A stretch of DNA of 64,000 bases from an uncultured Bacteroidota bacterium (GCA_963790965.1 CAWBQO010000004.1:1512-65511), one strand, 5' to 3'; shown: positions 7,056 through 63,525, numbered from the stretch's first letter. The notes: generated by a model not told the origin, from the letters alone. Made by a program: numbers and translations.

Positions 7056-7142
7056 ACCAGTGTTCCCGCTGTGCGGCCCCTCGTGGACGCACAGCGGAAC
7101 GATGCAACACCACCAACCATCCACTCTACTCAGAGGATGAAC

Positions 7143-43871: not shown

Positions 43872-44137
43872 AGCAGGGGAAATGTAGAGGTGACTATGTG
43901 TCGGAGGACGCCGGAGACCATTCACCGTGAGTTTACCTGTAGACGACCGTTGCGCGAGGTACCACGACAGCCGGGATGTATTAGAGCGCCTTTTCGCGGC
44001 GGCGCTTGGCGGGGCACGGGTAAGATCGCCCTTTTCCTTTTATACAACAAATGGTTTTATCAATCAACGGCATTTTGTATTTTGGTGTGGACCTCGCTCC
44101 TTCTGTCGAGGCTTTGCGGCCAAAATCAGTGTCTGCT

Positions 44138-47100: not shown

Positions 47101-47197
47101 CCTTTTTGAGGGCACGGCACTGGCAAGCGGCGTATACCTATACCGCATCGAGGCCTCCGGCGAGAGCGTCACCGGGAGGATGACGCTGGTGAGATAG
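44138..47197 (+). CDS. SGNH carbohydrate acetylesterase (sialate O-acetylesterase-like) with Ig-like, CBM32, Big, CBM35-like domains and T9SS CTD
   Basis: MVLQR, GDVWLASGQSNM, GGSRIETW, WYQGESNA, DIHPKNK, NLYN.EGLPA.PFR; AVDG..TRWTS; CTD LPNPF...FDLAGRRV...LASGVYLYR. Confidence 0.87.
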   Translation: MKRTLSLYISLLIALFAPSMAQAQVVLDAIYANGMVLQRETPVLLRGTANAGAVVSAHFNELPAVEGLADAKGRWSLSLPAMDAGGPHTLRVTSGNTTRTLTDVYIGDVWLASGQSNMEMALSQVQVGTSVNEPLIRQFKVQKGLANEPSAVLPSSAWTKATSSAAGAFSAVAFYFARDLRAHVDVPIGILNISYGGSRIETWMSDEMLGYDETDRVLANGEPERQPTLAFNKMINPVIGFPIKGFLWYQGESNADNMEDALAYGALFRTMIQSWRTLWGQGDLPFLWVQLPGYGTPAGDQPSTWDAWPRLRVGQSSALALPNTGEAITIDVGDTDIHPKNKLPVGVRLSTVARHVAYGEDIVYSGPRYVSNVLEENGRVRVRFTHTGGGLVAEGSDAGVLSSFALGDDSGRFVWANAEVDGEEVVLWSDAVPEPAEVRYAWEYNPADANLYNAEGLPAAPFRALVNPGFGIAAFSADRMLIETGQSTTLTWMVYGAETVTLNGAPVDTSGTLVIQPAETTTYTLLATKRGEPDVTETASLKVEVMDAGDINRALNRPATASSYESCCGPARLPAFAVDGVDTTRWTSAWSNGENGTTLDPNFDGDPSDEWLAVDLGSVIDISRVVIAWEAAYATEYDLEVSYDGYRYERVYRERQGNGGQDVIAFETPVSGRFLRLHALQRGTQWGYSVWEMAAYGTVSEKQPPTVQIGASGGNIGNVGATVALSVTATDADGTVAKVAFYADGQLISEDESAPYTASWVAGALGESKITAVATDNDGLSVQSPPLLFYVVGTAMATRYEAENAVLTGGAAVIASAATSGGKFVEGRDAWTLTFPDVQAATGGDYLLVLGYQLTFESPKAQYLVVDGDTVETVEFTAPSATQWMKRGVRVSLGTGSHEVAIHGFWNWMSFDYLDLIPLSLLAPVEPSAPGGTDGLGLFVLPNPFSHTATLQYSLSAPGPVRLDVFDLAGRRVATLVEGVQAAGTHTALFEGTALASGVYLYRIEASGESVTGRMTLVR

Positions 47198-47349: not shown

Positions 47350-48396
47350 TCAGTTCACCGCGCGGGTGGATTCGCGGACGACCAGCTCGGCCTGCAACAC
47401 CACTTGCTCCACGGGTGCCCGCCCGCCTGTTTCGATTGCCCGCAGCAGCAGCTCCGCGGCCGTCGTGCCGATCTCGCGCTTGGGCACATGGACCGTCGTA
47501 AGCGGCACGCTACCATAGGCGGCAAACGGGATGTCGTCGAAGCCGACGACGGATACGTCTCCCGGCACGTGAATGCCAAGCTCCGTGAGCGCGCGAACGA
47601 CGCCGAGCGCCACCATGTCATTGTAGCACGCGACGCCCGTCGGATGATCCGATCGGTGCTCGCGAAAGTAGGAGAGGGCCGCGTCGTAGCCGTCGCGCAG
47701 GTGGGCCCCTGTGGGCACGATCACGTCATCGCTGAAACGCAGGTGAGACTGGCTGAACGCCTTCTCCAGGCCGAGCACCCGGTCGATGCTGTGCTGCGAG
47801 TAGATCGGACCTGCAAAATGGACGATCCGTTCGTGCCCCGTGTCGAAAAGGTACTGAACGGCTGCCTGGAAGGCGCGCACATTGTCCACGCTAACGACGC
47901 TCGCCTGCAGGCCCGTCACGCGCTCTACAAGCACCAGGGGATATTCGCTCCGCTTGAGCTGGAAGAGCTGCGAAAGGTCGACATTGTCGTGCAGCACCGG
48001 CGCTATGATGATGCCGCTCAAAAACCGGTTGCGCATGGCCGAAACGAGCGTCCGTTCGTTTTCCGAATCTCCTTCCGAGGCGGTGATGAAAGAGAGGAAC
48101 TTGCTATCGACCATGCGCTTCTGCACGGCACCGGCAACTTCGGAGAAGTAGGGATTCTCCATCTCCTTGATAACCACGCCAATCCCCGGCTCGACGGTGT
48201 TGCCGTCGTTGGGGATCCCGGCGAGGTGCCGGGCGGCGGGCGAAGGCTGATAACCGACCTGCTCGACGACGCGAAGCACCCGGCGGCGCGTCTCGTCCCG
48301 GACCGTGCTGCGTTCGTTGATCACCGCCGATACGGTCCCCGTCGAGACGCCCGCACGGCGGGCTATGTCGGATATCGTCAGCTTCTTCTCAGCCAT
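47350..48396 (-). CDS. LacI-family transcriptional regulator
   Basis: TISDIARRAGVSTGTVS HTH; GYQPS..AR.L hinge; NDMVALG, VP.DVSVVGFDD, LTTV, LVVRES. Confidence 0.93.
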   Translation of the reverse strand: MAEKKLTISDIARRAGVSTGTVSAVINERSTVRDETRRRVLRVVEQVGYQPSPAARHLAGIPNDGNTVEPGIGVVIKEMENPYFSEVAGAVQKRMVDSKFLSFITASEGDSENERTLVSAMRNRFLSGIIIAPVLHDNVDLSQLFQLKRSEYPLVLVERVTGLQASVVSVDNVRAFQAAVQYLFDTGHERIVHFAGPIYSQHSIDRVLGLEKAFSQSHLRFSDDVIVPTGAHLRDGYDAALSYFREHRSDHPTGVACYNDMVALGVVRALTELGIHVPGDVSVVGFDDIPFAAYGSVPLTTVHVPKREIGTTAAELLLRAIETGGRAPVEQVVLQAELVVRESTRAVN

Positions 48397-48409
48397 TGCC
48401 GGTAGATTC

Positions 48410-48423
48410 TTAAAGCGCTTCAT
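48410..48423. promoter_or_regulatory. candidate LacI autoregulatory operator TTAAAGCGCTTCAT
   Basis: Palindromic core AAGCGCTT just upstream of the lacI ATG (48396). Confidence 0.5.
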
Positions 48424-48530
48424 TTGGTGCAATGCGGCGTACGCCTGTACGGGGCAAGGGGGTATTGAGATCCACTCAGATCATCCCCTACGCAAAGTAA
48501 GAAGAATTGAAACAGGGATCACGATTGGCC

Positions 48531-48559: not shown

Positions 48560-48802
48560 TCAGGTGCCAGGGAAAACGCCGTCGCGATGCGTTCGGATTC
48601 CCACAGGCACGGGTTGTTTGATGCGGTTCAATGAGGGGAGCGGAAGCCGGCAAGCGGCCGGAAGAAAGGCTTGAAACGTAGGTTCAGCCTTGTTTTTTGC
48701 GCTTTTTTCGGTACCGCTTTCGGGCCCCGAGCCGGCCGCCGGCACGGCGTTCATAAAGGAGTCAACTCGGCTCTTCCTATTCACCACAGATCCTTTACAC
48801 CT

Positions 48803-51163
48803 ATGCGAAGTGTGACGATCCTCAGCGCGATGCTCGCGCTGATGCTGGTTGCCCCCGCCGCCATGGCGCAGGTCGAACCAGTTTACCCTTATCCCGCGGA
48901 CCCGGAGACGCCGGTCCTCGGAGATAACTTTATCTTTTTCGTCGATGGCACCAACACGAAGGTGCAGAACGTCATCGGCGGGACCATCATGAACAATCCG
49001 CAGGATGCCAGTGACAAGGTGATCAAGCTCGGCGTTGGCTCTTGGGGTCAGGCGGGCTTCGCTTGGGACGAGACCGGCGTCAACATGGAGCAGAATATTG
49101 ACGACGGCGACTCGCTCTTCCTCGACATCCAGGTTCCGGCTAACACGCAGAAGCTCGTGGCACTTACCATCCGCGACTTTGCAGGAACAGTGAGTTCGGA
49201 TCCCGATTCCGACCTGCCGTTCGGCGTTACGTGGTGGCTGCCGGATTCGCTCTATGACGGCAACTGGCATCACCTCGAAATTCCGCTTCCTTTCAAGACG
49301 AAGGCCATTCAGGATTCGGCGAAGATCGGCAAGTACGCCGACGGAACGGCGATCCCCGCGGAACTCATGCCGAGCCGGGCAAAGCTGAACTGGGGCTACT
49401 TCACGCCCTGGAACGGTTCCGTGAGCGTCGGCCCCGGCCATGAGCAGTGGAAGGACATGACCTGGTACCGCATTCGCCGCGTCGGTATTTCCTTCGAAGG
49501 AGACGGAGGTGCCGGTCCGCTACTCGACAACGTGTACATCGGCAACTCAGGGGTCGACATGTCGGTGGCCACGCAGCCCGCGCAGTCTCCGCTGCCGAAC
49601 CTGAACGTCACCTCCGACGGGGACATGGCGTATATCACATGGACGCACGATCCGACGTCGGATATTGGCGCGTACAACCTGTACACGAGCAGCAAGCCGA
49701 TCACCGGTCCGAACGATCCCGACGCGCGCTGGCTCGCCGGATTTGGCGTCGACGGAGATCTCAGCTACGAGCATCCGGTTTATTCTCCGCACCCGAGCGA
49801 CGCCTCGCAGACGTACTACTATGCGCTCGTTGCGGCCAACACGTTTGGCTACGTCCCGAACGACGCGACCATAGAGACCGCAAGCCTCACCACGGAAGGC
49901 CGCCCGATTCCGTACATCTATGCGCTTACGGACGAGCAGCACGCAACCATCGAGAGCAACCTCATGGCCGGTGTTGCCTCTGCGGACGGATTTAACGGGG
50001 ACGTGATGAAGCCGTTCGTCCTCATGGGCAATACGGCGACCGACTATCCCGGCGAGTATACCGGCGAGATGGACGCTTCGGCGAAGGTCTGGGTGGCATA
50101 TAAAAAGGCTGCCGACTTCACGAGCTTCTATATCTATGCCGAAGTCATGGACGATTCGCCGTACCTGACGACCGTTCGCGCTCCCGAGTACGACGGCGCT
50201 TCGGGATTCAAATCGTGGGCGCACGCCGACATGGGTGACTTCCAGGATCCGACGATCTCGTGGAACGTCTATCTGCGCGATCAGCTGCAGTTTTACTTCG
50301 GCACCTACGATGTGCCGTTTACGGAAGGTTCCAAGGGTGGCCGCAAGCGCGGAGCCACGCCGGATTACTTCCTCTCGTTTACGCCATACGTGACGACGCT
50401 GGCTGAAGAGAACACCGGCAACATCGAGGACGTGCTCGTTCGCTTGTGGGCGGAAAAAGCATTGAAGCTCGACGATACGCAGGGAGATACCACCTACTTC
50501 TACAGTTCGGCAACCGAACTCGTGATTCCGCCCGTGTATGAGAATATCCTGGATGGATCCGGTGCCCGGATCGGATGGAAGATCCTCGCTGCGATTGATG
50601 CTACTGATCTGCTTCAGGCGAAGGATGCCTCCGGCAACCCGGTGGATGCCATTTTCGAGGCACCCGCTGATGACGGCATCAAGTACATCCCCTTCGCCAT
50701 TAATCTGGTCGATAAGGACGATGACTTTAAGCCGAATCACGGCAACTGGTGGGAAATTGCGAGCACGACGCTCGGGTGGTCGACCAAGCCGGACGCGAGC
50801 TTCTACGAGCCGGAGCCGACTGTTAATGACGTAGGTGCCGTGGCGGTGGTCGGCCTTGACCGCATCATCGTGGCCAACGAGACGGCCGACGTGCCCGGCA
50901 CGTTCGAGCTGCTGCAGAACTACCCGAACCCGTTCAACCCGAGCACGACGATTGCTTTCGAGCTTCCGACGGCTTCGGACGTGACGCTGACCGTCTATGA
51001 CGTGCTCGGCCGCCGCGTTGCGACCCTCCTCCAGGGCCAGCAGTTTGCAGCGGGCCGCGTAACCGTCACGATGGACGCGCGCACGCTCACCGCGGGTACG
51101 TACTTCTACCGCGTCGAAGCCGGTGACCATACGGCCACCAGGCAGATGATGCTCGTTAAGTAA
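48803..51163 (+). CDS. T9SS-secreted protein of unknown function (CBM-like jelly-roll, FN3-like, CBM9/DOMON-like, type A CTD)
   Basis: Signal ...AMA-Q; DGNWHHLEIP; YIYAEVMDD...D.LQFYF...IPFAINLVD.D pattern; CTD LLQNYPNPFNPST...VYDVLGRRV...AGTYFYR...MMLVK. Confidence 0.78.
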   Translation: MRSVTILSAMLALMLVAPAAMAQVEPVYPYPADPETPVLGDNFIFFVDGTNTKVQNVIGGTIMNNPQDASDKVIKLGVGSWGQAGFAWDETGVNMEQNIDDGDSLFLDIQVPANTQKLVALTIRDFAGTVSSDPDSDLPFGVTWWLPDSLYDGNWHHLEIPLPFKTKAIQDSAKIGKYADGTAIPAELMPSRAKLNWGYFTPWNGSVSVGPGHEQWKDMTWYRIRRVGISFEGDGGAGPLLDNVYIGNSGVDMSVATQPAQSPLPNLNVTSDGDMAYITWTHDPTSDIGAYNLYTSSKPITGPNDPDARWLAGFGVDGDLSYEHPVYSPHPSDASQTYYYALVAANTFGYVPNDATIETASLTTEGRPIPYIYALTDEQHATIESNLMAGVASADGFNGDVMKPFVLMGNTATDYPGEYTGEMDASAKVWVAYKKAADFTSFYIYAEVMDDSPYLTTVRAPEYDGASGFKSWAHADMGDFQDPTISWNVYLRDQLQFYFGTYDVPFTEGSKGGRKRGATPDYFLSFTPYVTTLAEENTGNIEDVLVRLWAEKALKLDDTQGDTTYFYSSATELVIPPVYENILDGSGARIGWKILAAIDATDLLQAKDASGNPVDAIFEAPADDGIKYIPFAINLVDKDDDFKPNHGNWWEIASTTLGWSTKPDASFYEPEPTVNDVGAVAVVGLDRIIVANETADVPGTFELLQNYPNPFNPSTTIAFELPTASDVTLTVYDVLGRRVATLLQGQQFAAGRVTVTMDARTLTAGTYFYRVEAGDHTATRQMMLVK

Positions 51164-51176
51164 GTATTGCCTGAAC

Positions 51177-51207
51177 GAATAAGGGGGCCGCAAGGCCCCC
51201 TTTATTC
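51177..51207 (+). terminator. strong stem-loop with GCAA tetraloop (terminator or attenuator)
   Basis: GAATAAGGGGGCC GCAA GGCCCCCTTTATTC followed by a pyrimidine tract. Confidence 0.65.
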
Positions 51208-51229
51208 TCCTTTCCCTCGCCCTTTCCCT

Positions 51230-54019
51230 ATGCGGTATCAGCGCCTCTTCCTGCTCCTGCTCCTGAGCGGCTTTGCATTTCCGGCTTCCCTCGTTCATGC
51301 GCAAAGCAAGGGGAAAATCTCAGGTAACGTCATCGACGACTTTGGCGCGCCTCTGCCGGGCGTTCAGGTCGTCATTGAAGGCACCCAGCGCGGCACGGTC
51401 ACGGCCGCCGATGGGTTCTACCAGATCGTTAGCGTAGATCCGGGTACCTACGCCCTGAACTTCCGCTTTATCGGCTTCGCCGACCTGACCGTGACCGGCG
51501 TCCAGGTCGTTCCCGACCAGACGACCACTATCGACGCCACCATGCGCGAGGAAGTCGTGCAGGGCGAAGAGGTCGTCGTTGTGGCGCAGCGGCCTATCGT
51601 GCAGAAGGACCGCACGACGACAACGGCCTACGTGGACGAAGAGCAGATCGAAGCGCTGCCCGTCACGTCCCTTTCAGAAATTATCAACCTCCAGGCGGGC
51701 GTCGTCGACGGGCACTTCCGTGGCGGCCGCACAAACGAGGTTTCCTACGTCGTTAACGGCGTACCGATCAACAATCCGTACACGAACACGGCGGGCTTCG
51801 AGATCGAGCAGAACATGGTGTCCTCGCTCGAAGTCATCACCGGCGTCTTCAATGCCGAGTACGGCCAGGCCACGTCCGGTGTCGTGAACATCGAGACGAA
51901 GGGCGCTCCCTCGAAGTGGTCCGGCTCGGCGCTCGTTTTTGCGCGCGCCCTTGCCAGCGGCCGCAAGATGGACTTTCTGGACCGCACGGCCCCGGCCGGC
52001 TCTGCGCTCGCCTACTCGGATTTCGAGACGAAGTCCTACTCCTTCATGGATCTTGCGGGCGGCCCTACCCGCACCGAGGCAAACGTAAGTCTCGGCGGAC
52101 CGCTCTACCGCAACCGCCTCGGCATCAACGTCAACGCGCGCTACATCGACGACCAGGGCTACTTCTTCGGTCGCGATCTCTTCAAGCCGGGCGACTATTC
52201 CGCGTTCATCATCAACCGGCCGCCGCGAGGCTACGCCGATCCGGAGAATCCGCAAGCTGACTACATCATCGAGTCCACCGGAAGCGGCGACTTTGTAAGC
52301 ATGGCCTCGTCCAAGCGCCTTTCGCTGAATACCGCAGTCGCGCTGGATGTCTCGTCCCGCCTGAAGCTCGATTACAACCTGTTTCTGCAGGACAACGAGT
52401 GGCTCGGCTTCAGCCACGCGCGCAAGTACGCTCCGGACGGGCGCAACAAGAACTACTCGAACAACATGACCCATATCGCCGGCCTGCGGTATGTGGCGAC
52501 CCCGACTACCTTTGTCGATATTTCTTACGCCTATCAGCAGGACGATTACGAGTCCTACCTCTACCAGGACCCGCTCGATGCGCGGCTCGTCCCGGGAACG
52601 TTCGACTCGCAGACGGGGCAGTACGCCTTCATGATCGGCGGCAATGAGCGCTATCAGGCGGCAAACACGACTTCTTCGCACAGCATCGTGGCCAGCGTGT
52701 CGTCGCAGCTCAACCGTATTCACCAGGTCAAGACGGGCGTTCAGGCGCGGTTCTATAGCCTCGACAACGACGCCTTCCCGATCGAGCACACGGTGTCCGA
52801 CATCGATGCCGTAACGTCGCGCCCGCTTGCGTGGGTAACGTCCATCCCGGCCGTGGGCGACTGGCGGCGCAACACGCTGAATGTCAGCCCGCGCGAGTTC
52901 TCGGCCTACATTCAAGATAAGATCGAGCTGCAGCACCTGATCATCAACGCCGGACTGCGCTTCGACCGCTTCGACGCGCGCTACGATGTCCCATTGAACT
53001 GGTCGAATCCCGAACCGCTCTACCTTCCGAGTCTCGATGTGGTGGGGGATTCCGTCTACAACCGCACGCCGGCGAAGGCCAAGTACCAGCTCAGCCCGCG
53101 TATCGGTGTGGCCTTCCCGATCTCGGCCAACGGCGTGATTCGCTTTTCCTACGGCATGTTCTTCCAGGTGCCGAACTACCAGGACATCTTCTCGAATCCG
53201 AACTACATCATCAACCGCGCCTCGTCAACGACCGGCCTCGGCAACCCGGACATCGAACCGCAAAGCACCTCCACGTTTGAAGTGGGCCTGCAGCAGGGCC
53301 TGACGGACGCGCTCGGCGTCGAGCTGACGCTCTACAGCCGCGACGTGCGCGAGCTGCTTTACAACGAGATCGAACAGACCACTACCGGCGACTTCATCGT
53401 CCGCTCGGTCAACAAGAACTACGGCACCGTGCGCGGCTTTACGCTCGCCTTCTTCCAGCGCCAGGCCGGTCCGCTTGCGTGGACGCTCGACTACACGTTG
53501 CAGTTTGCCGACGGATCGTTCGCGCTTTCCGGCGACCAGTTCTTGCGCGTGCGCCGGGGCCTCGACGAGACCTACTCGCTGGCCCGCCTGACGTGGGACC
53601 GCCGCCACGTGGCCAACGCCACCATAACGCTCTCGCCCAACAAGGACCTTCGCGCAACGCTCATCAACCGGTTCCAGACCGGGCAGCCGTACACGAGCGT
53701 GCGTTCGAGCGTCATGTCGAACATCCCGAACAACGTGGACTCTCCGGCCTACTTCACGAGCGACCTGCGCGTCTACTACAAACCGTTCTTCATTCCGTTT
53801 GACGGCGCGCAGCTCTTCCTGCAGGTCGACAACATCTTCGACACGCAGGTGCAACAGGCGGTTTACGCCGACTCCGGCACGGCCACCGAGACGCCGACGA
53901 TGGAGCGCGTGCGCGACACGCCGATTCAGGGCCTGAACACCATCGACGAGTACTTCTGGCAGCAGGGGTTCTTCGGTTCACCACGACAGATTGCCCTCGG
54001 ACTCAACTTCCGCTTTTAG
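51230..54019 (+). CDS. TonB-dependent transporter (non-SusC type)
   Basis: GKISG.V.D..G.PLPGV.V; HFRGGR.NEV.Y.VNG.PI; LEVITGVFNAEYGQATSGVVNI; INAGLRFD; SPRIGVAFPI; C-terminal PRQIALGLNFRF. Confidence 0.92.
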   Translation: MRYQRLFLLLLLSGFAFPASLVHAQSKGKISGNVIDDFGAPLPGVQVVIEGTQRGTVTAADGFYQIVSVDPGTYALNFRFIGFADLTVTGVQVVPDQTTTIDATMREEVVQGEEVVVVAQRPIVQKDRTTTTAYVDEEQIEALPVTSLSEIINLQAGVVDGHFRGGRTNEVSYVVNGVPINNPYTNTAGFEIEQNMVSSLEVITGVFNAEYGQATSGVVNIETKGAPSKWSGSALVFARALASGRKMDFLDRTAPAGSALAYSDFETKSYSFMDLAGGPTRTEANVSLGGPLYRNRLGINVNARYIDDQGYFFGRDLFKPGDYSAFIINRPPRGYADPENPQADYIIESTGSGDFVSMASSKRLSLNTAVALDVSSRLKLDYNLFLQDNEWLGFSHARKYAPDGRNKNYSNNMTHIAGLRYVATPTTFVDISYAYQQDDYESYLYQDPLDARLVPGTFDSQTGQYAFMIGGNERYQAANTTSSHSIVASVSSQLNRIHQVKTGVQARFYSLDNDAFPIEHTVSDIDAVTSRPLAWVTSIPAVGDWRRNTLNVSPREFSAYIQDKIELQHLIINAGLRFDRFDARYDVPLNWSNPEPLYLPSLDVVGDSVYNRTPAKAKYQLSPRIGVAFPISANGVIRFSYGMFFQVPNYQDIFSNPNYIINRASSTTGLGNPDIEPQSTSTFEVGLQQGLTDALGVELTLYSRDVRELLYNEIEQTTTGDFIVRSVNKNYGTVRGFTLAFFQRQAGPLAWTLDYTLQFADGSFALSGDQFLRVRRGLDETYSLARLTWDRRHVANATITLSPNKDLRATLINRFQTGQPYTSVRSSVMSNIPNNVDSPAYFTSDLRVYYKPFFIPFDGAQLFLQVDNIFDTQVQQAVYADSGTATETPTMERVRDTPIQGLNTIDEYFWQQGFFGSPRQIALGLNFRF

Positions 54020-54038
54020 TTAGTACAGCACGCGAGAC

Positions 54039-57000
54039 ATGAACCTACGGCTGAAACTCCTTCTTTTGCTGGTACTCCTGCCGGCCGCTGCGCTCCGCAG
54101 CAACGCCCAGATTGCCAGCATTCCTCCCGAGTACCGGGGCACGATCGACCGCGTGGCCCGAGGGGTTCTCGATGGCAACCTGATCGAAACCAACTTTCGT
54201 AATCATGGCGAGCTTTCCCGCTGGAGCGATTCGCCGTGGGGCGTCTGGCCGCGTGGAACCGGCAACCGCCACATCGACGGCGTGGCGCTCATGGTCGCGG
54301 GGCGCGTTCCGGCCAACCGGCTGGACTATCCGGGGCTGTTCCCGAACGCCCGCACCGATACGACGGTCAACCCGGTCATTTTGAACTACCGCGACAACGG
54401 CAAGACGGTCGGCGCGCGGGACGGCCTTCTCTACGGCTGGCTTCCGCTTCCGGGCTTCCACAATCCCATTCGCCGCGACGCGGTCACGGGCCGCAACGAG
54501 CCGCAGCCGGCGCAAAGCGACGATCCGACCACATGGCCTGCCTTCTGGCCCGACCGCTTAAACTACTCGGACGATCCCGGCTGGGCGGGCAAGTGGAATG
54601 GCCTTTTCGGCAAGGGCGTCTTCAACGCGGACCTCGAAGCGTACTACGTGATGGATGACCATCAAGACTACGAGTACCGCATCGACCCCGAGACCGGGTT
54701 GAACAACAGCCCGTACGGCGTCTTCTATCCCGATCCGCAGGATTCCACCATGGGCGGCCTCGGGCTGCGCGTCGGCGTGCGCCTGTTGCAGTGGGCGAAC
54801 ATCCTGGCCGAGGACGTCATGTTCCTCCTCTATGAAGTGAACAACGACGGACGGGTGAATCACGACTCGCTCTACTTCACCAACCTGATTGACTACGGCT
54901 TCGGCGAGCAGGAAAACGACGGTATCGCCGCCTTCGACCCGCAGCTCGACATCGCTTACGGATGGGACAGGAGTGGCACGGGCGTGAAAACGAACGGTGA
55001 GGTCTACAAGATCGGGTACACCGGGTTTGCGTTCCTCGAAAGCCCCGCCTACCGCGACGACGGGATGGACAATGACGAGGACGGCATCGTCGACGAAGAC
55101 CGGTTCTCGGGGCCTGGAATGCTCATCGAAGGACGAGACGCGATTCTCGCCTACGTGCAGGGCAATTACGACGTGGCGCTTTTCGAGCAGACGTTTGGTC
55201 CCGTTACCGAAACCGCCGCCTATCAACAAGGCTACTGGTGGACGGGCGACGAGAACATGAACTGGCGTGGTTTTCTCGACGAGAACAACAACGGCCGCCA
55301 CGATGAGGGCGAACTGCTCTTCAACGATACCGGGCGCGACGGCCTCGGCCCGAACGACCTCGGGTACGTCGATCCGGACGAAGGCGAAGCCAACGGCCGT
55401 CCCGACGCGGGAGAGCCGAACTTCGACCGGCTGGACATCCCCGAATCGGATCAGATCGGACTCACGGGATTCGACCTCAACACCCGTCCCTTCTACGAAA
55501 ACGGCAATAACCTGAAGACGGACACGTGGCTCTGGGATCGCGTGCTGTTCTCGCAGTTTCCGCTGGGCACCAAACCCGAGCAGCGCATTGCCGACGTGGA
55601 ACCGTTCCTGCTCTTTACCTCCGGGCCGGTTCGCCTTGCGCCGGGGCAGACGGACTTCTTCTCGCTGGCGTGGGTGTTCGGTGCCAACCGGGACGACTTC
55701 TACAAGAATCGGCGGACGGTGCAGAACATCTACGACGCAAACTACAACTTTGCGCAGCCGCCGTTCATCCCGACGCTGACGGCGGTGCCGGGCGACGGGG
55801 AAGTGCTGCTTGGCTGGGACCAGGTCGCGTTGCTGAGCTTCGACCGCTTTACCCAGGAGTTCGATTTCGAGGGCTTCAAGCTTTACAAGGGCACCGACCC
55901 GCTCCTGATGGAATCCCGCATCATCTCCGACGCCAACGGCACCCCGACGTTCAACAAGCCCATCGCTCAGTGGGACCTCAACGACGGCATCCGTGGCACC
56001 ATCCCGGTGCTGGACAATACTTCGGTCTATAATCTCGGCACTGACAACGGTCTCCAGTTCTTCTATGTCGACAAGGACGTGAAGAACGGCGTGCGGTACT
56101 ACTACGCGCTCGTCGCGTACGATCAGGGAGTTATGGACTCGCTCGGTAACGTCATCATCGATCCGCAAGAGAACGTGTTCAACTTCTCCGTGGACGAGTT
56201 CTCGAACTCGCTCGGCAAGTCCAAGAACGCGCAGGTTGTTGTGCCGCAGTTCCGGACGGCCGGGTACGTCAACAGCAGCACGGATCAGGACCTCTCGCGC
56301 GTTACCACGGGCGATGGCACCGGCTCCATCGATGTGCGCGTCGTGATCGACGAGGAGGCGAAGTACGACAACGTCTACGAGATCACGTTCTTCGACTCGA
56401 CGCTGGACGCGCAGACGGGCGAATACCTGACGCGCTCCTACATGGTGACCGATGTTACGGAAGGGACGGTCGTCCTGCCCCGCACGCCGATGTCTGCCTC
56501 AACGCCGCTCGTCGACGGCTTCTTCATCGAGATGTTTAACGATGAGCTTATCGAACCGTTTGCCGACCGGACGGGCTGGGTAAAGGGCCAGGGCACGCCC
56601 GACGTGCAGTATGCGCAGAATGCCGCTGAGCTTAGCGATTACGGGACCGACTGGCGCGTCCAGGTGACGAAGGGGCAGGACGCGGACGTGTGGCTCTACA
56701 CGCCGGACGACTACGAGCTGCGCTTCAGCAACAACAACGTCTACTTCCCGCCGCGCTTCTTTCGTCCGGGTCTAATCCGCGATTCGATCAATGTCGAGGC
56801 GTGGAACGTCTCGAAAAATCGCCGGGCGGAACTGCTGGTTCGCGACATCAACGACAGCAAGGACTTCGACGCGGGCGACGAACTGATCATTGCCGAGCGA
56901 ATCGGCGGCGGTGCCACCGGGACGCTCTACTACCGCTGGGCGGTGCGCTTCCTGGCGCCGAGCGGCGCAGGCGACGCGCCGGGCGCGGGCAACGTGGTCC

Positions 57001-57407
57001 GCATCAGCAATCGCAAGCCGTTCCGCACGGGCGACACGTTCCGGTTCGAACTTGGCTCAGGCTATGTCGATAACGACCTGGCCCGGGCGGAAATGGACCG
57101 CATCGGCGTGGTACCGAACCCGTACATCGCCACGAGTGAACTCGAGCTTAGGACGACCTCACAGGCGCGCGGCGACCGAAAGATCATGTTCATCGGTCTC
57201 CCGCAGCGATGTACTATCCGCATCTATAACCTTCGCGGCGAGCTAATCCGGCAACTCGAACACAATTCCGCCGGCAGTGACGGCATGGAGGAGTGGGACC
57301 TGCGCACGCGCGATAACCAGGATGTGGCTTACGGCGTGTATATCTACCATGTAGAGGCTCCCGACCTCGGCGAAGAAAAAACCGGCAAGCTGGCCCTTAT
57401 CAAGTAG
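54039..57407 (+). CDS. large secreted hypothetical protein with DxDxDG Ca-binding motifs, FN3-like region and variant (FlgD-Ig-like) CTD
   Basis: Signal ...SNA-Q; DGMDNDEDGIVDE, DENNNGRHDEGE, GRPDAGEPNFD; C-terminus VVPNPY...IRIYNLRGELIR...WDL...VAYGVYIYHV...KLALIK. Confidence 0.8.
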   Translation: MNLRLKLLLLLVLLPAAALRSNAQIASIPPEYRGTIDRVARGVLDGNLIETNFRNHGELSRWSDSPWGVWPRGTGNRHIDGVALMVAGRVPANRLDYPGLFPNARTDTTVNPVILNYRDNGKTVGARDGLLYGWLPLPGFHNPIRRDAVTGRNEPQPAQSDDPTTWPAFWPDRLNYSDDPGWAGKWNGLFGKGVFNADLEAYYVMDDHQDYEYRIDPETGLNNSPYGVFYPDPQDSTMGGLGLRVGVRLLQWANILAEDVMFLLYEVNNDGRVNHDSLYFTNLIDYGFGEQENDGIAAFDPQLDIAYGWDRSGTGVKTNGEVYKIGYTGFAFLESPAYRDDGMDNDEDGIVDEDRFSGPGMLIEGRDAILAYVQGNYDVALFEQTFGPVTETAAYQQGYWWTGDENMNWRGFLDENNNGRHDEGELLFNDTGRDGLGPNDLGYVDPDEGEANGRPDAGEPNFDRLDIPESDQIGLTGFDLNTRPFYENGNNLKTDTWLWDRVLFSQFPLGTKPEQRIADVEPFLLFTSGPVRLAPGQTDFFSLAWVFGANRDDFYKNRRTVQNIYDANYNFAQPPFIPTLTAVPGDGEVLLGWDQVALLSFDRFTQEFDFEGFKLYKGTDPLLMESRIISDANGTPTFNKPIAQWDLNDGIRGTIPVLDNTSVYNLGTDNGLQFFYVDKDVKNGVRYYYALVAYDQGVMDSLGNVIIDPQENVFNFSVDEFSNSLGKSKNAQVVVPQFRTAGYVNSSTDQDLSRVTTGDGTGSIDVRVVIDEEAKYDNVYEITFFDSTLDAQTGEYLTRSYMVTDVTEGTVVLPRTPMSASTPLVDGFFIEMFNDELIEPFADRTGWVKGQGTPDVQYAQNAAELSDYGTDWRVQVTKGQDADVWLYTPDDYELRFSNNNVYFPPRFFRPGLIRDSINVEAWNVSKNRRAELLVRDINDSKDFDAGDELIIAERIGGGATGTLYYRWAVRFLAPSGAGDAPGAGNVVRISNRKPFRTGDTFRFELGSGYVDNDLARAEMDRIGVVPNPYIATSELELRTTSQARGDRKIMFIGLPQRCTIRIYNLRGELIRQLEHNSAGSDGMEEWDLRTRDNQDVAYGVYIYHVEAPDLGEEKTGKLALIK

Positions 57408-57418
57408 GTTGTACCCCC

Positions 57419-58465
57419 ATGCAGCATAGATACCTTCCTCTCTGGGCCTTCGCGCTCGCCTGTTTGCTCCTCGTGCCGGACGCTGCGCTCGCGCAGCGCA
57501 AGGTCGGCACAACCGCCGCCCCGTTCCTTTCGCTTGGAACGGGAGCACGCGGCAGCGCCCTCGGCGACGCTTACGTGGCGAGCGCACGCGGCGCGGACGC
57601 GCTCTTCTGGAACCCCGCCGGCATGGCGATTCCCCAGGAGGGCAATCCGTTCGCCTCGCTGTTCTTCACCAACTACCAGTGGGTGGCGGACATCTCGTAC
57701 AACGCCGTCGCGTTTACGCTGCCCGTCATGGCCAACCGCCTGATAGGCGTCTCCTTCGGCGCGGTCGACTACGGCACGATGGACGTGACGAACATCGACA
57801 ACCCGTACGGCACCGGCGAGCGCTTCGGTGCCACGGACATGATGGTGGGCCTATCGTACGCGCAGCCGCTTACCGAACGCTTCTACATCGGCGGCACGGC
57901 CAAGTACATCTCGCAGAAGATCTGGGACATGCGGGCCAGCACCGTTGCGCTCGACATCGGCTTCGTGCTCATCACGCCGTACATCAACGGTCTGCGCCTC
58001 GCGGCTTCCATGCAGAACTTCGGCGGCCGCATGAGCCTCGACGGAATCAACACGGAGATCTTTGTGGACCCCATTCCCGGCAACGCGGGCAGCAGCGAGA
58101 ATATTCCCGTTCGCTACCGCCTCGACACGTGGAGCCTGCCGCTCTCGTTCAAGTTCGGCGTTGCGGTGCCCGTCGTGAACACGAACTTCGTGCGCTGGGA
58201 AGTGATGGCGGAGTCGCAGCAGACGAACGACCAGTATTTGAACGCCGATCTCGGATCGGAGCTGCGGTTCATGCTTGGAAACACATCGTTTAACCTTCGT
58301 GGCGGATACCGCGACTTCCCGCTCGACGAGATTGCCGCGCATGCCTCCTATGGCTTTGGCATCGAGACGGGGCTTGATCCGGTGCGCGTCGGCTTTGACG
58401 TGGCCCGCGTACCGTTTGAGTACCTGGGCAACACGACCCTGATCGACCTGCGGCTGTACTTTTAG
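57419..58465 (+). CDS. PorV/PorQ-family (UPF0164, FadL-like) outer-membrane beta-barrel
   Basis: KVGTTAAPFL.LG.GARG.ALG.A, ALFWNPAG, alternating beta-strand pattern, terminal Phe. Confidence 0.87.
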   Translation: MQHRYLPLWAFALACLLLVPDAALAQRKVGTTAAPFLSLGTGARGSALGDAYVASARGADALFWNPAGMAIPQEGNPFASLFFTNYQWVADISYNAVAFTLPVMANRLIGVSFGAVDYGTMDVTNIDNPYGTGERFGATDMMVGLSYAQPLTERFYIGGTAKYISQKIWDMRASTVALDIGFVLITPYINGLRLAASMQNFGGRMSLDGINTEIFVDPIPGNAGSSENIPVRYRLDTWSLPLSFKFGVAVPVVNTNFVRWEVMAESQQTNDQYLNADLGSELRFMLGNTSFNLRGGYRDFPLDEIAAHASYGFGIETGLDPVRVGFDVARVPFEYLGNTTLIDLRLYF

Positions 58466-58589
58466 CTCTTTGCCGCCTCACGAAACGCCGGAACGGTGGC
58501 GGAGGGAACGGGTAAGCGACGTAAACCTTTGTGTTTACCGGCTATACCGGCTCCTTCTCCCTGTTCTTGTCCCCTCCGGCACCTGACGC

Positions 58590-60272
58590 ATGTTTCGTAT
58601 CTACAGATGTACCTACGCGCTGCGTTTGTTTCTCGCGGCCGTCCTGTTCTCGGTAAGCCTGACGGCCGTGGCAGGCTGCCACAAGCAGCCGGTCTACCCG
58701 TTCGATGAAGGAGCCGTTATTGCAAAGGTTAACGGCTTCGAGATCAGCCGAGAGTTCTACGAGCGCTCGTACGTCCAGCACCTGCTCGCGACGGGTGCCA
58801 ACGACGACTCGCTGCAGCGCTACCTACACCTCGAGAACCTGATCGATCAGGTGTTGCTCGCGCGCGAAGCCGAGCGGCGCGGGTACGAAGACGCGACGTA
58901 CCACCAGTTTGCCCGGATGCAGCAAGACCTTGCACTGAACGACCTCTACTTCTACGCGCACTTCATAGATACGAGCCGCGCGGTGTCGGAGGCCGAATCG
59001 CGGGTTGCCTATGCGCGGACGCAGGAGCAGCGGTACGTCAGTCAGCTTTTCTTCACCTCGAAGGAGGACGCCGACCGCTACTTCAGGCGGCTGCAGGAGG
59101 GCGAGTCGTTTCTTGACCTCGCGAACGAGCGATATGGAATGGCGGCCTACGATTCGTCGGCGGGATCGCTCGGCAAAGTGGAGTATTTCGACCTCGACGA
59201 TGCCTTTGCCGAGGCGGCATGGGCGTTGGAGCCGGGGGCGTACTCGGAGCCGATCCGGACGCGGCAAGGATATAGCATCATTCGTGTGGATCATGTCGCC
59301 CGGAACCCGCTGCTTACTGAGCACGGTTTTGGGCAGAAGAAAGAGAAGGTGACCTACCTTGCCGGGCAGCGCCGGATGAACCTCGAAGGGGACGCCTTCA
59401 TCCGCAGCGAAATGGAGCGGCTGGGAGTCGAGACCCATGCGGCCAGCATCGAGCAGGTCTACTGGGGCCTTGTTGCCCTCGCGCAGAGTCGTTCTCCGGA
59501 GCGCCGCGTGCCGGTGTCGCTCGTGGAAAGTGAGGTGGCTCCGCTTCGTAGCCGCCTTACGCCCGAGACGCCGCTCGTGACCTACAAACTCGACGGCGAG
59601 ACGCGCACCTTTACCGCACAGGATTATCTCGACTGGCTTCCGTACCTGCCGTTCGAAGAAGCGCTCAACCGCACGATTCCGTCTGTAGGGCGCGCCCTTC
59701 GGTACAGCGTGTTTGCTGAATGGGCGCGGCGAGAGGGACTTGGCGCCGAGCCGTGGCTCGTCTTTAACGAGCAGTATGATCGCGTTTTCAATCTTTCGGC
59801 GCGGATGCTCGACAGCTTGAGGACGGGCGCGGTCAACGCGCCGATCCCGGACTCTGTGCGCCGAACCATAGCTGCGTCGTCGGGTGGTCGAACGCTGGCC
59901 AACTTCTGGATCGTGCGCGTAAGCAGCCTTGATCTTGCCAACCAGTACGCCTTTGCCGTGCGCGAGGGACTTAGCAAGCCTTCCGATTACATCAAGTTCA
60001 GCGCGTTTACCGAAACCGATGTTCAGAGCTTACCTGCGTTGGCCGGGCCGCTAAAGGGCGCGGCGCTCGGCGAGGTGGAGGTCGCCGGCACGCCCGATTC
60101 GTGGTACGTGTTTCAGGTGAACGCTCGCCGTACGGTTCCGGAAGACGGCGCTATGTCGGCGGCGGAAACGGCGGCGCGGTACAACACTTTTCGGCTCTTG
60201 AGCGACTTGCGCGCCGAGGCCACGATCTCCGTCGACACCACCGCTTTTAATCAACTGCTGCCGCAGGAGTGA
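58590..60272 (+). CDS. SurA/PpiC-type peptidyl-prolyl isomerase, probable lipoprotein
   Basis: Lipobox VAGC; IAKVNG.EI, LENLIDQVLL, GESF.DLA, FAEAAW.L.PG.YSEPIRT..GY.IIRV. Confidence 0.78.
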   Translation: MFRIYRCTYALRLFLAAVLFSVSLTAVAGCHKQPVYPFDEGAVIAKVNGFEISREFYERSYVQHLLATGANDDSLQRYLHLENLIDQVLLAREAERRGYEDATYHQFARMQQDLALNDLYFYAHFIDTSRAVSEAESRVAYARTQEQRYVSQLFFTSKEDADRYFRRLQEGESFLDLANERYGMAAYDSSAGSLGKVEYFDLDDAFAEAAWALEPGAYSEPIRTRQGYSIIRVDHVARNPLLTEHGFGQKKEKVTYLAGQRRMNLEGDAFIRSEMERLGVETHAASIEQVYWGLVALAQSRSPERRVPVSLVESEVAPLRSRLTPETPLVTYKLDGETRTFTAQDYLDWLPYLPFEEALNRTIPSVGRALRYSVFAEWARREGLGAEPWLVFNEQYDRVFNLSARMLDSLRTGAVNAPIPDSVRRTIAASSGGRTLANFWIVRVSSLDLANQYAFAVREGLSKPSDYIKFSAFTETDVQSLPALAGPLKGAALGEVEVAGTPDSWYVFQVNARRTVPEDGAMSAAETAARYNTFRLLSDLRAEATISVDTTAFNQLLPQE

Positions 60273-60330: not shown

Positions 60331-61185
60331 ATGCGCCACCTACGCGGCTTCTCCGCCTCATTCGTGCTTATTCTTTCTGCCGCACTCGCGCTCTCTGCAG
60401 CCGGCTGCGACAGCGCCTCACCTGCGGACACCGCCGACGTGCCCGACCTTCCCGGCTGGACGCTCGTCTGGAACGACGAGTTTAACGGCGAGGGTGTGCC
60501 CAACGCGGCTGATTGGACCTACGACACGGGAAACAGCGGTTTCGGCAACAACGAATTGCAGACCTACTACGCCAACAACACCGAGACGGCCCGGATGGAG
60601 GGCGGCAATCTGGTCATCACCACCTCTCTTGTCGAGCGGCCAAACTACAAGGAATACCGTTCAGCGCGGCTAAAGACGGCCGGCAAGCACGCCTGGAAGT
60701 ACGGCAGGATCGAGGTGCGGGCGCAGCTTCCCTCCGGCACCGGCACCTGGCCCGCGATCTGGATGCTTTCGCAGGACGGCGCTTACGGCGGCTGGCCGCG
60801 CAGCGGCGAGATCGACATCATGGAGCACGTGGGCTACGAACCGAACGTCGTCCATGGGACCGTTCACACGCAGTCGTTCAACCATATTCAAGGAACGCAG
60901 AAGGGCGACCAGCTCAGCGTTCCGACCGCCACGACGGGCTTCCACACGTACGCCATCGAGTGGTTTGAGGACCGGATAGACTTCTTCGTGGACGACGAAA
61001 AATACTTCACGTTCAACAATACGGGTAACGGATCCAATGATTGGCCGTTCGACCAGCCGTTCTTCCTCGTGCTGAATACTGCCGTCGGTGGTAATTGGGG
61101 CGGGCAGCGTGGCGTGGATGACAAAGCCTTTCCAACGCAGATGCTCGTAGACTACGTCCGCGTGTACGAAAAGGTGGGAGGCTGA
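60331..61185 (+). CDS. GH16 beta-1,3-glucanase (laminarinase), lipoprotein
   Basis: Lipobox AAGC; LVWNDEF, GNNELQ, YGRIE, WPAIWML, catalytic GEIDIME, PFDQPFFLVLN. Confidence 0.92.
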   Translation: MRHLRGFSASFVLILSAALALSAAGCDSASPADTADVPDLPGWTLVWNDEFNGEGVPNAADWTYDTGNSGFGNNELQTYYANNTETARMEGGNLVITTSLVERPNYKEYRSARLKTAGKHAWKYGRIEVRAQLPSGTGTWPAIWMLSQDGAYGGWPRSGEIDIMEHVGYEPNVVHGTVHTQSFNHIQGTQKGDQLSVPTATTGFHTYAIEWFEDRIDFFVDDEKYFTFNNTGNGSNDWPFDQPFFLVLNTAVGGNWGGQRGVDDKAFPTQMLVDYVRVYEKVGG

Positions 61186-61248
61186 TACGCCCGGTCCTTC
61201 GTGTCCGCGTCGCTTGACTCCTTGCTGTCATACCGCTCAATTACCTGC

Positions 61249-63525
61249 ATGAAACCTTCCTTTGTCCGGCTACTGCTTGGCGCGGCATGCCTGTTCCTCA
61301 CGTTTCCAACCTTGATTCATGCGCAAGCGCAACCCGAACCGACCCGATTGATGGACCCCGCCGTTGAAGCCCGAATTGACGCTCTGATCGAGCGAATGAC
61401 GCTCGACGAAAAGATCGGGCAAATGACGCAGCGCACGAGTTCGTACGCCTACGATCCGGATGGGCAGCTCGCCGCAATCCGGTCCGGCGCGATCGGCTCC
61501 GTGCTGAATGAAGTCGACCCGAACGTTGTCAACGAGATGCAGCGGGTTGCGGTTGAGGAAAGTCGCCTTGGCATTCCGCTCATCAACGGGCGCGACGTGA
61601 TCCACGGCTTCCGTACCGTTTTCCCGATCCCGCTGGGGCAGGCTGCCACTTGGAACGAGGCGCTTGTTGAAGAGGGCGCGCACGTTGCCGCCGTCGAAGC
61701 GGCCTCGCAGGGCGTGGACTGGACGTTCGCACCGATGATCGACGTGAGTCGCGACGCCCGGTGGGGCCGCATTGCCGAGAGCCTCGGCGAAGAGCCGTAC
61801 CTCGCATCCGTGCTCGGCGCGGCCATGGTGCGCGGGTTCCAGGGGAGTGACCTCTCAGAGCCGGGGCGCATCGCGGCTTCGGCCAAGCACTTCGCCGGCT
61901 ACGGCGCGGCCGAAGGAGGACGCGACTACAACACGACCGTGATCGATGAGCCGTCGCTGCGCGGCATTTACCTGGCCCCCTTCAAGGCGGCGGAAGAGGC
62001 TGGTGCGGCGACGTTCATGACGGCATTCAACGAGATCAACGGCATTCCGGCTTCCGGGCACGAACACCTCATCTCGGATATACTGAAAGGCGAATGGGGC
62101 TTTAACGGCTTCGTCGTGAGCGATTGGGGATCGATTACGGAAATGATCGCGCACGGGTATGTCGAGGACGCAAAGCAGGCGGCGGAAGTGGCCGTTAACG
62201 CCGGTATCGATATGGAAATGTCGAGCGCTTCCTACGTCGACCACATGGCCGATCTCGTAGCTTCAGGCGCGGTCTCCCAAGCCCGGATCGACGATGCCGT
62301 GCGGCGTATTCTGCGCGTGAAAATGATGCTCGGGCTTTTCGACGATCCGTACGTCACGCCGGCCGATTTTCCCAAACTCCTTGCTCCCGATCACCTCGAT
62401 GCCGCGCGCAAGACCGCACGGCAGAGCATGGTGCTCCTCAAGAACGACGGCGTCTTGCCACTGCGCTCCGGCGCGGGTACGGTAGCGCTCATCGGCCCAC
62501 TTGCCGACGCGCCGCACGACCAGATGGGCACGTGGGTTTTCGACGGCAAGAAAGAGGATACCGTAACGCCGCTTGCTGCGCTGCGCGAGGAACTCGGATC
62601 GGATCGCGTGCGCTTCGCGCCGGGCCTGGCGCTCTCTCGCACCGAGGATCAGAGCGGCTTCGCCGAGGCCGTTGAAGCGGCGCGTGCCGCCGATGTCGCC
62701 GTTGTTGTCGTGGGAGAGGAATCCATTCTCTCCGGCGAGGCGCATTCGCGGGCGGACATCAGTTTGCCGGGCGCGCAGGACGAACTCGTCGCCGCCATTG
62801 CGGAGACGGGGACGCCGGTAGTGTTCGTGGTCATGGCAGGCAGGCCGCTCGTTATCTCGGAGGCGACCGCACGCTCCGCGGCCGTTCTTTACGCCTGGCA
62901 TCCAGGAACGATGGGCGGCCCCGCGCTCGCGGACCTGCTCTTCGGGCGGGAAGCGCCGTCGGGCAAGCTGCCGATAACATTGCCGAACATGGTCGGACAG
63001 GTGCCGATCTATCTCGCTCAAAAGAACACCGGCCGGCCCGCGCCCGCCGACCCGGTCACGCTGGACAGGATCCCGCCGGAGGCCGACCAGACCTCGCTCG
63101 GCAACTCTTCGTACTATCTCGACGCGGGTTCGCAGCCGCTGTTTCCATTCGGCTTCGGACTTTCGTACACGACGTTTTCGTACAGCAACCTGCGTCTATC
63201 GGCTGAAACCATGCGGCCGGACGGGCAGCTGTCGGCCTCCGTCGACGTGACGAACACGGGCAGCGTTGCCGGCGATGAGGTCGTTCAGCTCTACACCCGC
63301 GATCTCGTGGGTAGCCTCACGCGGCCCGTCAAGGAGCTGAAAGGCTTCGAGCGCATCCGTTTGGAGCCGGGGCAGACCCGCACGGTCACGTTCAACCTCA
63401 AGGGAGATGATCTCGCCTTCTACAACCGCGACCTCGAACGCGTCACGGAGCCGGGTGCCTTCCACGTCTGGATCGGCGGAGATTCGCAGTCGGCGCTCCG
63501 GGCATCCTTCCGAGTCGTCGACTAA
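61249..63525 (+). CDS. bglX: GH3 beta-glucosidase (BglX-like)
   Basis: EKIGQM, SRLGIPL..GRDVIHG, DARWGRIAE, AKHFAGYG, VVSDW, SGEAHSR, FPFGFGLSYT, RPVKELKGF. Confidence 0.9.
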   Translation: MKPSFVRLLLGAACLFLTFPTLIHAQAQPEPTRLMDPAVEARIDALIERMTLDEKIGQMTQRTSSYAYDPDGQLAAIRSGAIGSVLNEVDPNVVNEMQRVAVEESRLGIPLINGRDVIHGFRTVFPIPLGQAATWNEALVEEGAHVAAVEAASQGVDWTFAPMIDVSRDARWGRIAESLGEEPYLASVLGAAMVRGFQGSDLSEPGRIAASAKHFAGYGAAEGGRDYNTTVIDEPSLRGIYLAPFKAAEEAGAATFMTAFNEINGIPASGHEHLISDILKGEWGFNGFVVSDWGSITEMIAHGYVEDAKQAAEVAVNAGIDMEMSSASYVDHMADLVASGAVSQARIDDAVRRILRVKMMLGLFDDPYVTPADFPKLLAPDHLDAARKTARQSMVLLKNDGVLPLRSGAGTVALIGPLADAPHDQMGTWVFDGKKEDTVTPLAALREELGSDRVRFAPGLALSRTEDQSGFAEAVEAARAADVAVVVVGEESILSGEAHSRADISLPGAQDELVAAIAETGTPVVFVVMAGRPLVISEATARSAAVLYAWHPGTMGGPALADLLFGREAPSGKLPITLPNMVGQVPIYLAQKNTGRPAPADPVTLDRIPPEADQTSLGNSSYYLDAGSQPLFPFGFGLSYTTFSYSNLRLSAETMRPDGQLSASVDVTNTGSVAGDEVVQLYTRDLVGSLTRPVKELKGFERIRLEPGQTRTVTFNLKGDDLAFYNRDLERVTEPGAFHVWIGGDSQSALRASFRVVD

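Follow-up and report, generated by a model that had tools for sequence, protein, structure and literature searches.

Uptake of complex glycans by Bacteroidota is, in the textbook account, the work of the SusC/SusD pair, and the tools used to predict polysaccharide utilisation loci key on the same two genes. Among type IX secretion system (T9SS) cargos, PorZ and PorU are, to our knowledge, the two known to keep their tails. One review (PMC10202324) describes the PorZ tail as retained and bound to PorQ and the PorU tail as remaining bound to PorV, and considers whether cleavage of tails might be prevented by their cognate PorV-like barrels. We analysed a gene cassette at positions 48803-60272 of a 64,000-nt stretch of DNA from an uncultured Bacteroidota bacterium (GCA_963790965.1 CAWBQO010000004.1:1512-65511; the whole stretch is termed the window), in which a TonB-dependent transporter (TBDT), a large secreted protein here called B, and an outer-membrane barrel of the PorV/PorQ family are encoded by consecutive genes. 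This trio was found to be a conserved, widespread module, and the cassette is probably part of a beta-glucan utilisation locus in which B would be held at the cell surface by its own barrel.

Comparable layouts have been drawn previously in Rhodothermus marinus. In the table of the xylan locus (PMC6987092), Rmar_1070 is given as a TBDT and two ‘hypothetical proteins’ come after it, whilst the published alginate locus has the layout tonB, hypA, hypB, hypC (PMC9530828), which corresponds to the heparinase-type trio of the genome analysed here (L024), extra FadL-like gene included. Both papers draw the trio without interpreting it. No paper interpreting a TBDT-cargo-PorV-like module was found in the full-text literature, a search whose coverage excluded subscription journals and supplements, and the accessible portion of a 2026 review of bacterial glycoside transporters (PMC13543919) makes no mention of T9SS, type IX, PorV, or names beginning with Rhodotherm- or Ignavibacteri-.

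Organisation and distribution of the TBDT-B-barrel trio

Open reading frame (ORF) listing and family scans placed five plus-strand genes between positions 48803 and 60272, in the order A830, TBDT, B, PorV/PorQ-family barrel and parvulin protein, with intergenic gaps of 3 to 124 bases, a LacI gene upstream, and GH16 and GH3 genes downstream. An initial interpretation made from the DNA alone (the sequence-only reading) had laid out these five co-directional genes in the same way, beside the LacI gene and ahead of GH16 and GH3, and had added that no SusD gene follows the TBDT and that the TBDT lacks SusC motifs. On SusD the family scans agreed, as no cassette gene gave a match. On SusC they agreed in part, in that the TBDT fell short of the SusC/RagA model TIGR04056 (81 bits against a cut-off of 368.25, with only model positions 2-205 of 981 aligned), but its domain order of CarboxypepD_reg, Plug and barrel keeps the SusC-like N-terminal arrangement. 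When the window TBDT was used as a phmmer query within this genome, the ten other trio TBDTs scored 143-854 bits and the TBDTs encoded beside SusD genes 40-51 bits; judged by these sequence comparisons, the TBDT belongs to a family distinct from SusC.

A total of 15 PorV/PorQ-family genes were present in the genome, 11 of which lie in TBDT-linked TBDT-B-barrel trios, that of the window included. The order TBDT, B, barrel was observed in ten of the 11, the other being rearranged with a B-like gene a few genes upstream; an arrangement of this kind goes far beyond what chance would produce. When the pairwise similarity matrices of TBDT, B and barrel were compared across ten trios, they agreed with one another (Spearman 0.69-0.81; 0-1 of 5000 permutations reached the observed value), indicating that the trio has duplicated and diverged as a unit. 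One trio is accompanied by two GH10 genes (xylan) together with a LacI gene, an A830-like protein and a second parvulin gene, and others by an alpha-amylase and a CBM20 protein, by two PF10091 proteins, by a GH42-like gene or by a heparinase II/III-like gene. At the last-named locus, of heparinase II/III type (L024), a gene encoding a FadL/Toluene_X-like protein of 464 residues (12078-13472) follows the barrel gene.

Housekeeping components of the T9SS are encoded elsewhere in the genome. The PorV gene (294.9 bits on the PorV model) follows that of a 1347-residue Peptidase_C25 protein, PorU, whilst PorQ (261.4 bits on the PorQ model) occupies a separate locus and PorZ is encoded at C3:542899-545259 (364.9 bits). 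The separate PorV and PorQ genes ruled out the window barrel as the only PorV of the genome, and it is a paralogue and not the housekeeping copy, as had been supposed from the sequence alone. A further PorV-family barrel, located outside the uptake loci and with no TBDT, comes after a 531-residue BNR/Asp-box protein whose tail is PorZ-like (G000:C3:232105-234755; L032 7105-9755).

Relatives of B were retrieved from species genomes (511 in total), and the best 80 loci were examined with hidden Markov models built from this genome's own paralogues. A TBDT gene was found directly upstream of B in 78 of the 79 assessable loci and a barrel gene directly downstream in 76 of 79, with L058 ending in B and L064 starting in B, such that each could be assessed on one side only. 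Loci with the trio came from Rhodothermales, Balneola, Ignavibacteria/Melioribacter, Calditrichia, Neomarinimicrobiota and others. The conservation suggested for the triplet by the sequence-only reading was borne out by these loci and by the 11 copies within the genome, and the TBDT-B-barrel trio is a conserved, widespread module.

One 300-genome sample of the phylum was searched both for B and for SusD, and B was detected in 136/301 genomes and SusD in 155/301. Four coded families (f18, f20, f26 and f30) encoded B in 35/35 genomes and SusD in 4/35; in another four (f15, f21, f24 and f25), B was found in 0/45 genomes and SusD in 43/45. Genomes of the window's own class mostly encode both. This distribution constitutes a pattern and not a test, because related genomes are not independent. 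In a further coded family (f19), neither B nor SusD was detected in any of the 63 sampled genomes, at least five of which are small (1.8-2.6 Mb).

Fold of B, its tail and the predicted barrel interface

The AlphaFold2 (AF2) model of B, based on a 59-row alignment, had a pLDDT of 72.7 and a pTM of 0.48 and was confident mainly from residue 580 onward. The domain plan comprises a supersandwich with Asp-rich loops (residues ~30-573), a beta-rich stalk (~580-1010) and a tail like those of PorZ and PorU (~1023-1122). A structural search with the model (VIA) related residues ~30-573 to the N-terminal beta-supersandwich of GH94, GH15 and GH65-type enzymes (glycoside phosphorylases, glucoamylase-type), for example 9ju0 (Z 16.3, root-mean-square deviation (rmsd) 3.5, 245 residues aligned) and 6ggy (Z 16.2); the alignments span about 245-258 residues, and in the background the best Z is typically 7-8. 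On this moderate-confidence model, B carries a galactose-mutarotase-like supersandwich, which is a carbohydrate-associated module in the matched enzymes. Whole-model Foldseek comparison of B with the PDB returned weak strings of FN3 domains only, with PorZ on top at a low TM score, and a PDB profile search with the B sequence returned only the tails of PorU (E 0.027) and PorZ (E 0.41).

Two D-x-[DN]-x-[DN]-G motifs (DNDEDG at 344 and DENNNG at 414) are situated within long insertions of the supersandwich, matching the calcium-type motifs that the sequence-only reading had attributed to this cargo, and further invariant Asp/Gly clusters occur at 430-475; these Asp-rich loops may therefore bind calcium. 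No catalytic domain was found in either A830 or B by family scans and fold searches, in line with the earlier view that these cargo proteins are not ordinary hydrolases. SusD domains (PF07980, PF14322) gave no match in B or A830 at E <= 0.01, whilst the same model detects SusD genes elsewhere, and the signal peptide of B is devoid of Cys, hence has no lipobox. The family to which B belongs is large and without a name, with at least 4519 cluster representatives (50% identity) at E <= 0.001 and 491 at E <= 1e-30. Relatives were ‘hypothetical’ or unnamed among the best 120 of at least 1176 matches, and a protein atlas search with B returned ‘hypothetical’ clusters only.

The fold of the B tail matched those of PorZ (5m11; Z 12.0, rmsd 2.4, 92 residues aligned, 27% identity) and PorU (6za2; Z 9.8, rmsd 2.7, 87 residues aligned). 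When the genome was searched with the PorZ model, 11 tail-region matches were obtained outside PorZ itself, namely B paralogues (9/11), PorU and the 531-residue BNR protein that precedes another PorV-like barrel, and all 11 are encoded in loci with a PorV-family barrel; none of the other type A cargos of the genome was among them. The type A tail model TIGR04183 recognised 70 tails in the genome, including those of 3/11 B paralogues near the bottom of the list (23-28 bits), and gave no match to the window B at E <= 0.01, whilst the type B tail model CHU_C (PF13585) scored B below its cut-off (17.7 bits, E 0.0041, cut-off 27). Amongst 26 diverse members of the B family, the PorZ tail was matched by 13, the PorU tail by ten and the type A model by four. 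The sequence-only reading had given C-terminal secretion domains to both secreted proteins; this holds for A830, whose sole family match is the type A tail (42.7 bits, cut-off 23), and for B it needs amending, as the type A model gave no match there. Sequence and modelled fold place the B tail closest to the tails that PorZ and PorU keep, and further from the cleaved type A class, and by analogy it may be retained uncleaved.

The window barrel matched the PorV/PorQ family model NF033709 over model positions 1-322 of 326 (Table 1), and fell below the cut-offs of the PorV model NF033710 (61.5 against 250 bits) and the PorQ model NF033711 (90.2 against 220 bits); no PorP/SprF match was found for it at E <= 0.01. 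The barrel (residues 25-348) and B (residues 985-1122), with alignments of 56 and 59 rows respectively, were modelled as a complex in three runs, alongside three controls. An ipSAE of 0.88 was obtained in 3/3 runs, against 0.00 for the best of the three controls, with at least 92% of contacts shared between runs and a partner pLDDT of at least 72. The mark set by the tool for complexes was reached by 58/80 solved complexes and 2/110 mismatched pairs, and is roughly valid with user-supplied alignments. Contacts with the barrel were predicted at B residues 1023-1031, 1061-1070 and 1090-1106 and at the last ten residues. The barrel is thus the predicted anchor for the B tail, and the interface anticipated from the sequence alone is a confident prediction. 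In a barrel tree that sampled 16 of the 80 related loci, with two over-extended ORF translations trimmed at the N-terminus, a group with a support of 100/100 joined the window barrel to its paralogue from the xylan locus and to orthologues from Rhodothermales/Balneola.

Proposed anchoring of B and alternative explanations

We consider it fairly probable that the locus serves the utilisation of a beta-glucan of the laminarin or lichenan type, and that its outer-membrane core is formed by the TBDT, B and a PorQ-like barrel instead of SusC/SusD, with the tail of B anchored. Sec would take B across the inner membrane and the T9SS across the outer, whereupon the divergent C-terminal domain of B would remain uncleaved and dock on the co-encoded barrel, as PorZ does on PorQ and PorU on PorV, and this docking would tether B at the surface beside the TBDT. 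The N-terminal supersandwich, stiffened by calcium-binding-type loops, could capture glucan fragments made by GH16 and pass these to the TBDT, whilst A830, with its CBM-like folds and ordinary type A tail, may be an additional surface glycan binder. Final degradation would be carried out by GH3 in the periplasm, the LacI protein would regulate the locus, and the parvulin lipoprotein would help the outer-membrane components to fold. The mechanism with the best support is that B is anchored, as modelled, by a PorQ-like barrel of its own; that B acts as a lid at the TBDT, or hands substrate over to it, is plausible and is offered as a proposal only, and from the same scheme we infer that B contacts the TBDT and binds sugar.

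Several observations weigh against this reading. The barrel-tail score may reflect likeness and not specific pairing, because PorV-tail complexes have already been solved (one such chain, 8glj_D, surfaced in the search), and the controls included no ordinary type A tail. The match of the PorZ model to the window B tail is weak (E 2.2e-5, 23 bits, cut-off 260), as are all PorZ and PorU tail matches in the family, with half of the 26 diverse members giving none. AF2 confidence for B is moderate, the fold search barely covered the B stalk (580-1010) and parts of A830, and the supersandwich was also matched by aldose 1-epimerases (Z 10-11), which leaves room for a catalytic role of B, since the fold occurs also in such enzymes. 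TBDT-linked barrels formed no clade apart from PorV/PorQ in the barrel tree (3 label changes, 14/28 inner forks open, long branches). The standard order is broken in three of the 79 loci: the barrel precedes B in L047 (TBDT, barrel, B), an additional gene separates B from the barrel in L082, and no barrel is present within 8 kb downstream of B in L104. The sample is itself limited to the best 80 of the 511 relatives. Trios without a nearby carbohydrate-active enzyme (CAZyme) also occur (for instance at C2:236082-243473). Finally, six SusD genes are present elsewhere in the genome, with one SusC/SusD pair directly beside a trio, and because the two systems coexist the trio is not a simple SusC/SusD replacement here; the sequence-only reading, which spoke of ‘replacing SusC/SusD’, was too strong for this organism.

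At the locus concerned (L026 7956-18955; G000:C1:197956-208955), the SusC/SusD pair lies directly upstream of the trio, together with DUF4832/DUF4874 proteins, and both systems may therefore serve one substrate.

A more far-reaching proposal is that the TBDT, B and barrel constitute one stable three-part machine, with the barrel packed beside the TBDT and gripping B by an uncleaved tail, and with the supersandwich as a hinged lid over the transporter, and that this is the main glycan importer of SusD-less lineages of the Fibrobacterota-Chlorobiota-Bacteroidota (FCB) group. If so, this T9SS-dependent utilisome would have met the need served by SusD independently of it, or earlier. We regard this proposal, taken as a whole, as possible but rather doubtful.

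The barrel could instead be a dedicated export shuttle that escorts B, and perhaps further cargo encoded at the locus, away from the T9SS translocon, with B processed by PorU and then released or lipid-linked, acting as a free or surface glycan binder without a stable TBDT complex. PorV itself is described as a shuttle in PMC10202324, the complex model fits transient binding as well as stable binding, and the barrel tree leaves the trio barrels unseparated from PorV. However, the tail of B is nearer to the retained PorZ and PorU tails than to the cleaved type A class, and a housekeeping PorV is already present for the ~65 ordinary type A cargos. Moreover, a shuttle would not seem to require a barrel for each TBDT-B pair or the parallel divergence of all three components, and we judge this explanation unlikely.

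No (alpha/alpha)6 or TIM domain was found in B, nor any match to a Pfam or NCBIfam enzyme family; the supersandwich is the non-catalytic N-terminal module in the matched enzymes, and the B family accompanies loci for chemically different glycans. It is consequently improbable that B is itself an enzyme, for example a glycan-modifying or mutarotase-like one, with the trio coupling surface catalysis to import, although its best folds are glycoside phosphorylase/hydrolase domains and aldose 1-epimerases and its invariant Asp, Glu, Trp and His positions are numerous. Less probable still is a barrel that works independently of the B tail, either as a structural partner for the barrel of the TBDT or as a channel of FadL type through which small hydrophobic or oligosaccharide products pass. 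In its favour, FadL homology is a property of PorV-family proteins, Toluene_X is weakly matched by a paralogous barrel, and the FadL-like BamG packs against BamA in the Bacteroidota BAM complex (PMC12578637); against it, the predicted barrel-tail interface is confident with zero-score controls, and in this genome PorZ-like tails were confined to proteins encoded in loci with such barrels.

If the trio is the working equivalent of SusC/SusD in Rhodothermales, Balneolales, Ignavibacteria, Calditrichia and Marinimicrobia-type lineages, which are abundant marine, sediment and hot-spring groups, then the potential for glycan use in these lineages is being missed. A family of at least 4519 clusters (50% identity) labelled ‘hypothetical’ would gain a role, and the T9SS a second general function, that of building nutrient-uptake machines via dedicated PorQ-like anchors. 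In Rhodothermus marinus, which is cultured, the published loci for xylan and alginate contain the trio, and the proposal is directly testable there.

Accessory genes and comparison with known systems

From its start codon (ATG 48803), A830 opens with a good signal peptide. A word-based homologue search returned six proteins for it, and the alignment was therefore assembled from ORFs of the related loci. In the AF2 model (pLDDT 76.1), a jelly roll like those of carbohydrate-binding modules (CBMs) is followed by an FN3 domain, then by a CBM9-like domain and lastly by a type A tail of the ordinary kind, four parts in all. The VIA search matched the jelly roll (residues 40-249) to CBM30 (2c24, Z 11.8) and residues 369-684 to CBM9 (1i82, Z 15.4, rmsd 2.7, 177 of 189 residues aligned). 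Because of these CBM-like folds, the designation ‘binding protein’ is supported at the level of fold, and A830 is probably a surface glycan-binding protein. A strong A830 homologue (>190 bits) was found in 14 of the best 80 loci (L034-L036, L038-L040, L042-L045, L049, L050, L083 and L107), and the full five-gene order in 13 of these 14, L050 being without a parvulin match. Parvulin homologues (at least 127 bits) followed the barrel, or B in the case of L047, in 19/80 related loci, and a parvulin gene accompanies 2/11 trios of this genome; going by this gene distribution, the parvulin lipoprotein appears to be a lineage-specific accessory. GH3 was encoded in 18/80 and GH16 in 15/80 related loci, and LacI genes flank four other trios of the genome.

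Coordinates are collected in Table 1. Ordinary signal peptides were detected in B, A830, the barrel and the GH3 protein, and lipoprotein signals in the parvulin and GH16 proteins. A promoter and terminator scan showed no enrichment of terminator-like sites across the region (13 found against 14.6 expected).

Table 1. Features of the cassette and its flanks, in window coordinates.
Feature	Position	Strand	Basis and remarks
LacI-family regulator	47350-48432	minus, divergent from cassette	Pfam LacI, Peripla_BP_1, Peripla_BP_3
A830, secreted protein without catalytic family	ORF 48671-51163, start ATG 48803	plus	TIGR04183; AF2 fold matches
Terminator-like hairpin, T-rich tail	51181-51202	plus	9 pairs, 7 G-C; between A830 stop and likely TBDT start
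TBDT, 950 residues	ORF 51167-54019, likely start ATG 51230	plus	CarboxypepD_reg, Plug, TonB_dep_Rec_b-barrel
B, secreted protein, 1122 residues	54039-57407	plus	signal peptide; no Pfam domain above threshold
PorV/PorQ-family outer-membrane barrel	57419-58465	plus	NF033709, 155.4 bits (cut-off 90)
Parvulin-type peptidyl-prolyl isomerase, 560 residues, lipoprotein signal (lipobox VAGC)	58590-60272	plus	Rotamase domains, residues 143-236
GH16 beta-glucanase, lipoprotein signal (lipobox AAGC)	60331-61185	plus	PF00722, 92.5 bits, above cut-off
GH3 beta-glucosidase, BglX type, Sec signal	61201-63525	plus	NF011678, 740 bits (cut-off 666)

Just upstream of the LacI gene (44051-47197), a secreted protein of 1048 residues is encoded that contains a SASA-type carbohydrate esterase, F5/8 type C, Big_7 and CBM35 domains and a type A tail, and has paralogues elsewhere in the genome, including one at window 16394-19351. 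Positions 486-43925 form a dense CAZyme island that includes GH97, a GH130 piece, a GlcNAc-2-epimerase-like gene, two GH26, GH9, GH94, two further GH3, GH29, GH2 and GH31, as well as a piece of an SSF symporter; frameshifts or errors of ORF calling may account for the shortness of the SSF and GH130 ORFs. A second TBDT (CarboxypepD_reg, Plug; 4056-7055) is followed directly by an 884-residue protein (7071-9725) whose T9SS tail is of the ordinary type A, and this pair (4056-9725), with no PorV-like barrel after it, is a two-gene variant of the theme.

Among known systems, the Xanthomonas carbohydrate utilisation (CUT) loci of the Gammaproteobacteria resemble the trio in that a TBDT imports glycans without a SusD partner, and we know of no obligatory surface partner or T9SS component in them. 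The pairing of type B cargo with co-encoded PorP/SprF-like barrels, as in SprB-SprF, is similar in that a dedicated barrel gene adjoins that of its own cargo and in surface anchorage; in contrast, the tail of B is type A-like or PorZ-like and not type B, its barrel is of the PorV/PorQ family, and the link to a TBDT is without a counterpart. As with SusC/SusD, a TBDT with a CarboxypepD_reg-type N-terminus is followed directly by the gene of a large surface protein, in CAZyme loci that have a regulator and extra binding proteins and that occur as many paralogous copies per genome for different glycans. Unlike that pair, the trio has a TBDT that fails the SusC model (81 against 368 bits), a T9SS cargo of ~1100 residues with a supersandwich in place of the tetratricopeptide repeat-type SusD lipoprotein (no lipobox and no SusD Pfam match in B), and a third component, the barrel. 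Relative to PorZ-PorQ and PorU-PorV, the role proposed for the trio is to capture nutrients beside a TBDT instead of processing cargo, this genome has 11 copies of it, and the trio barrel lies below the PorV and PorQ equivalog cut-offs. Nonetheless, these two pairs share with the trio a C-terminal domain docking on a PorV/PorQ-family barrel, with the tail of B presumably retained likewise; their tails are the closest to that of B in sequence and fold, and the genes of PorU and PorV are adjacent in this genome, cargo then barrel, as are those of B and its barrel.

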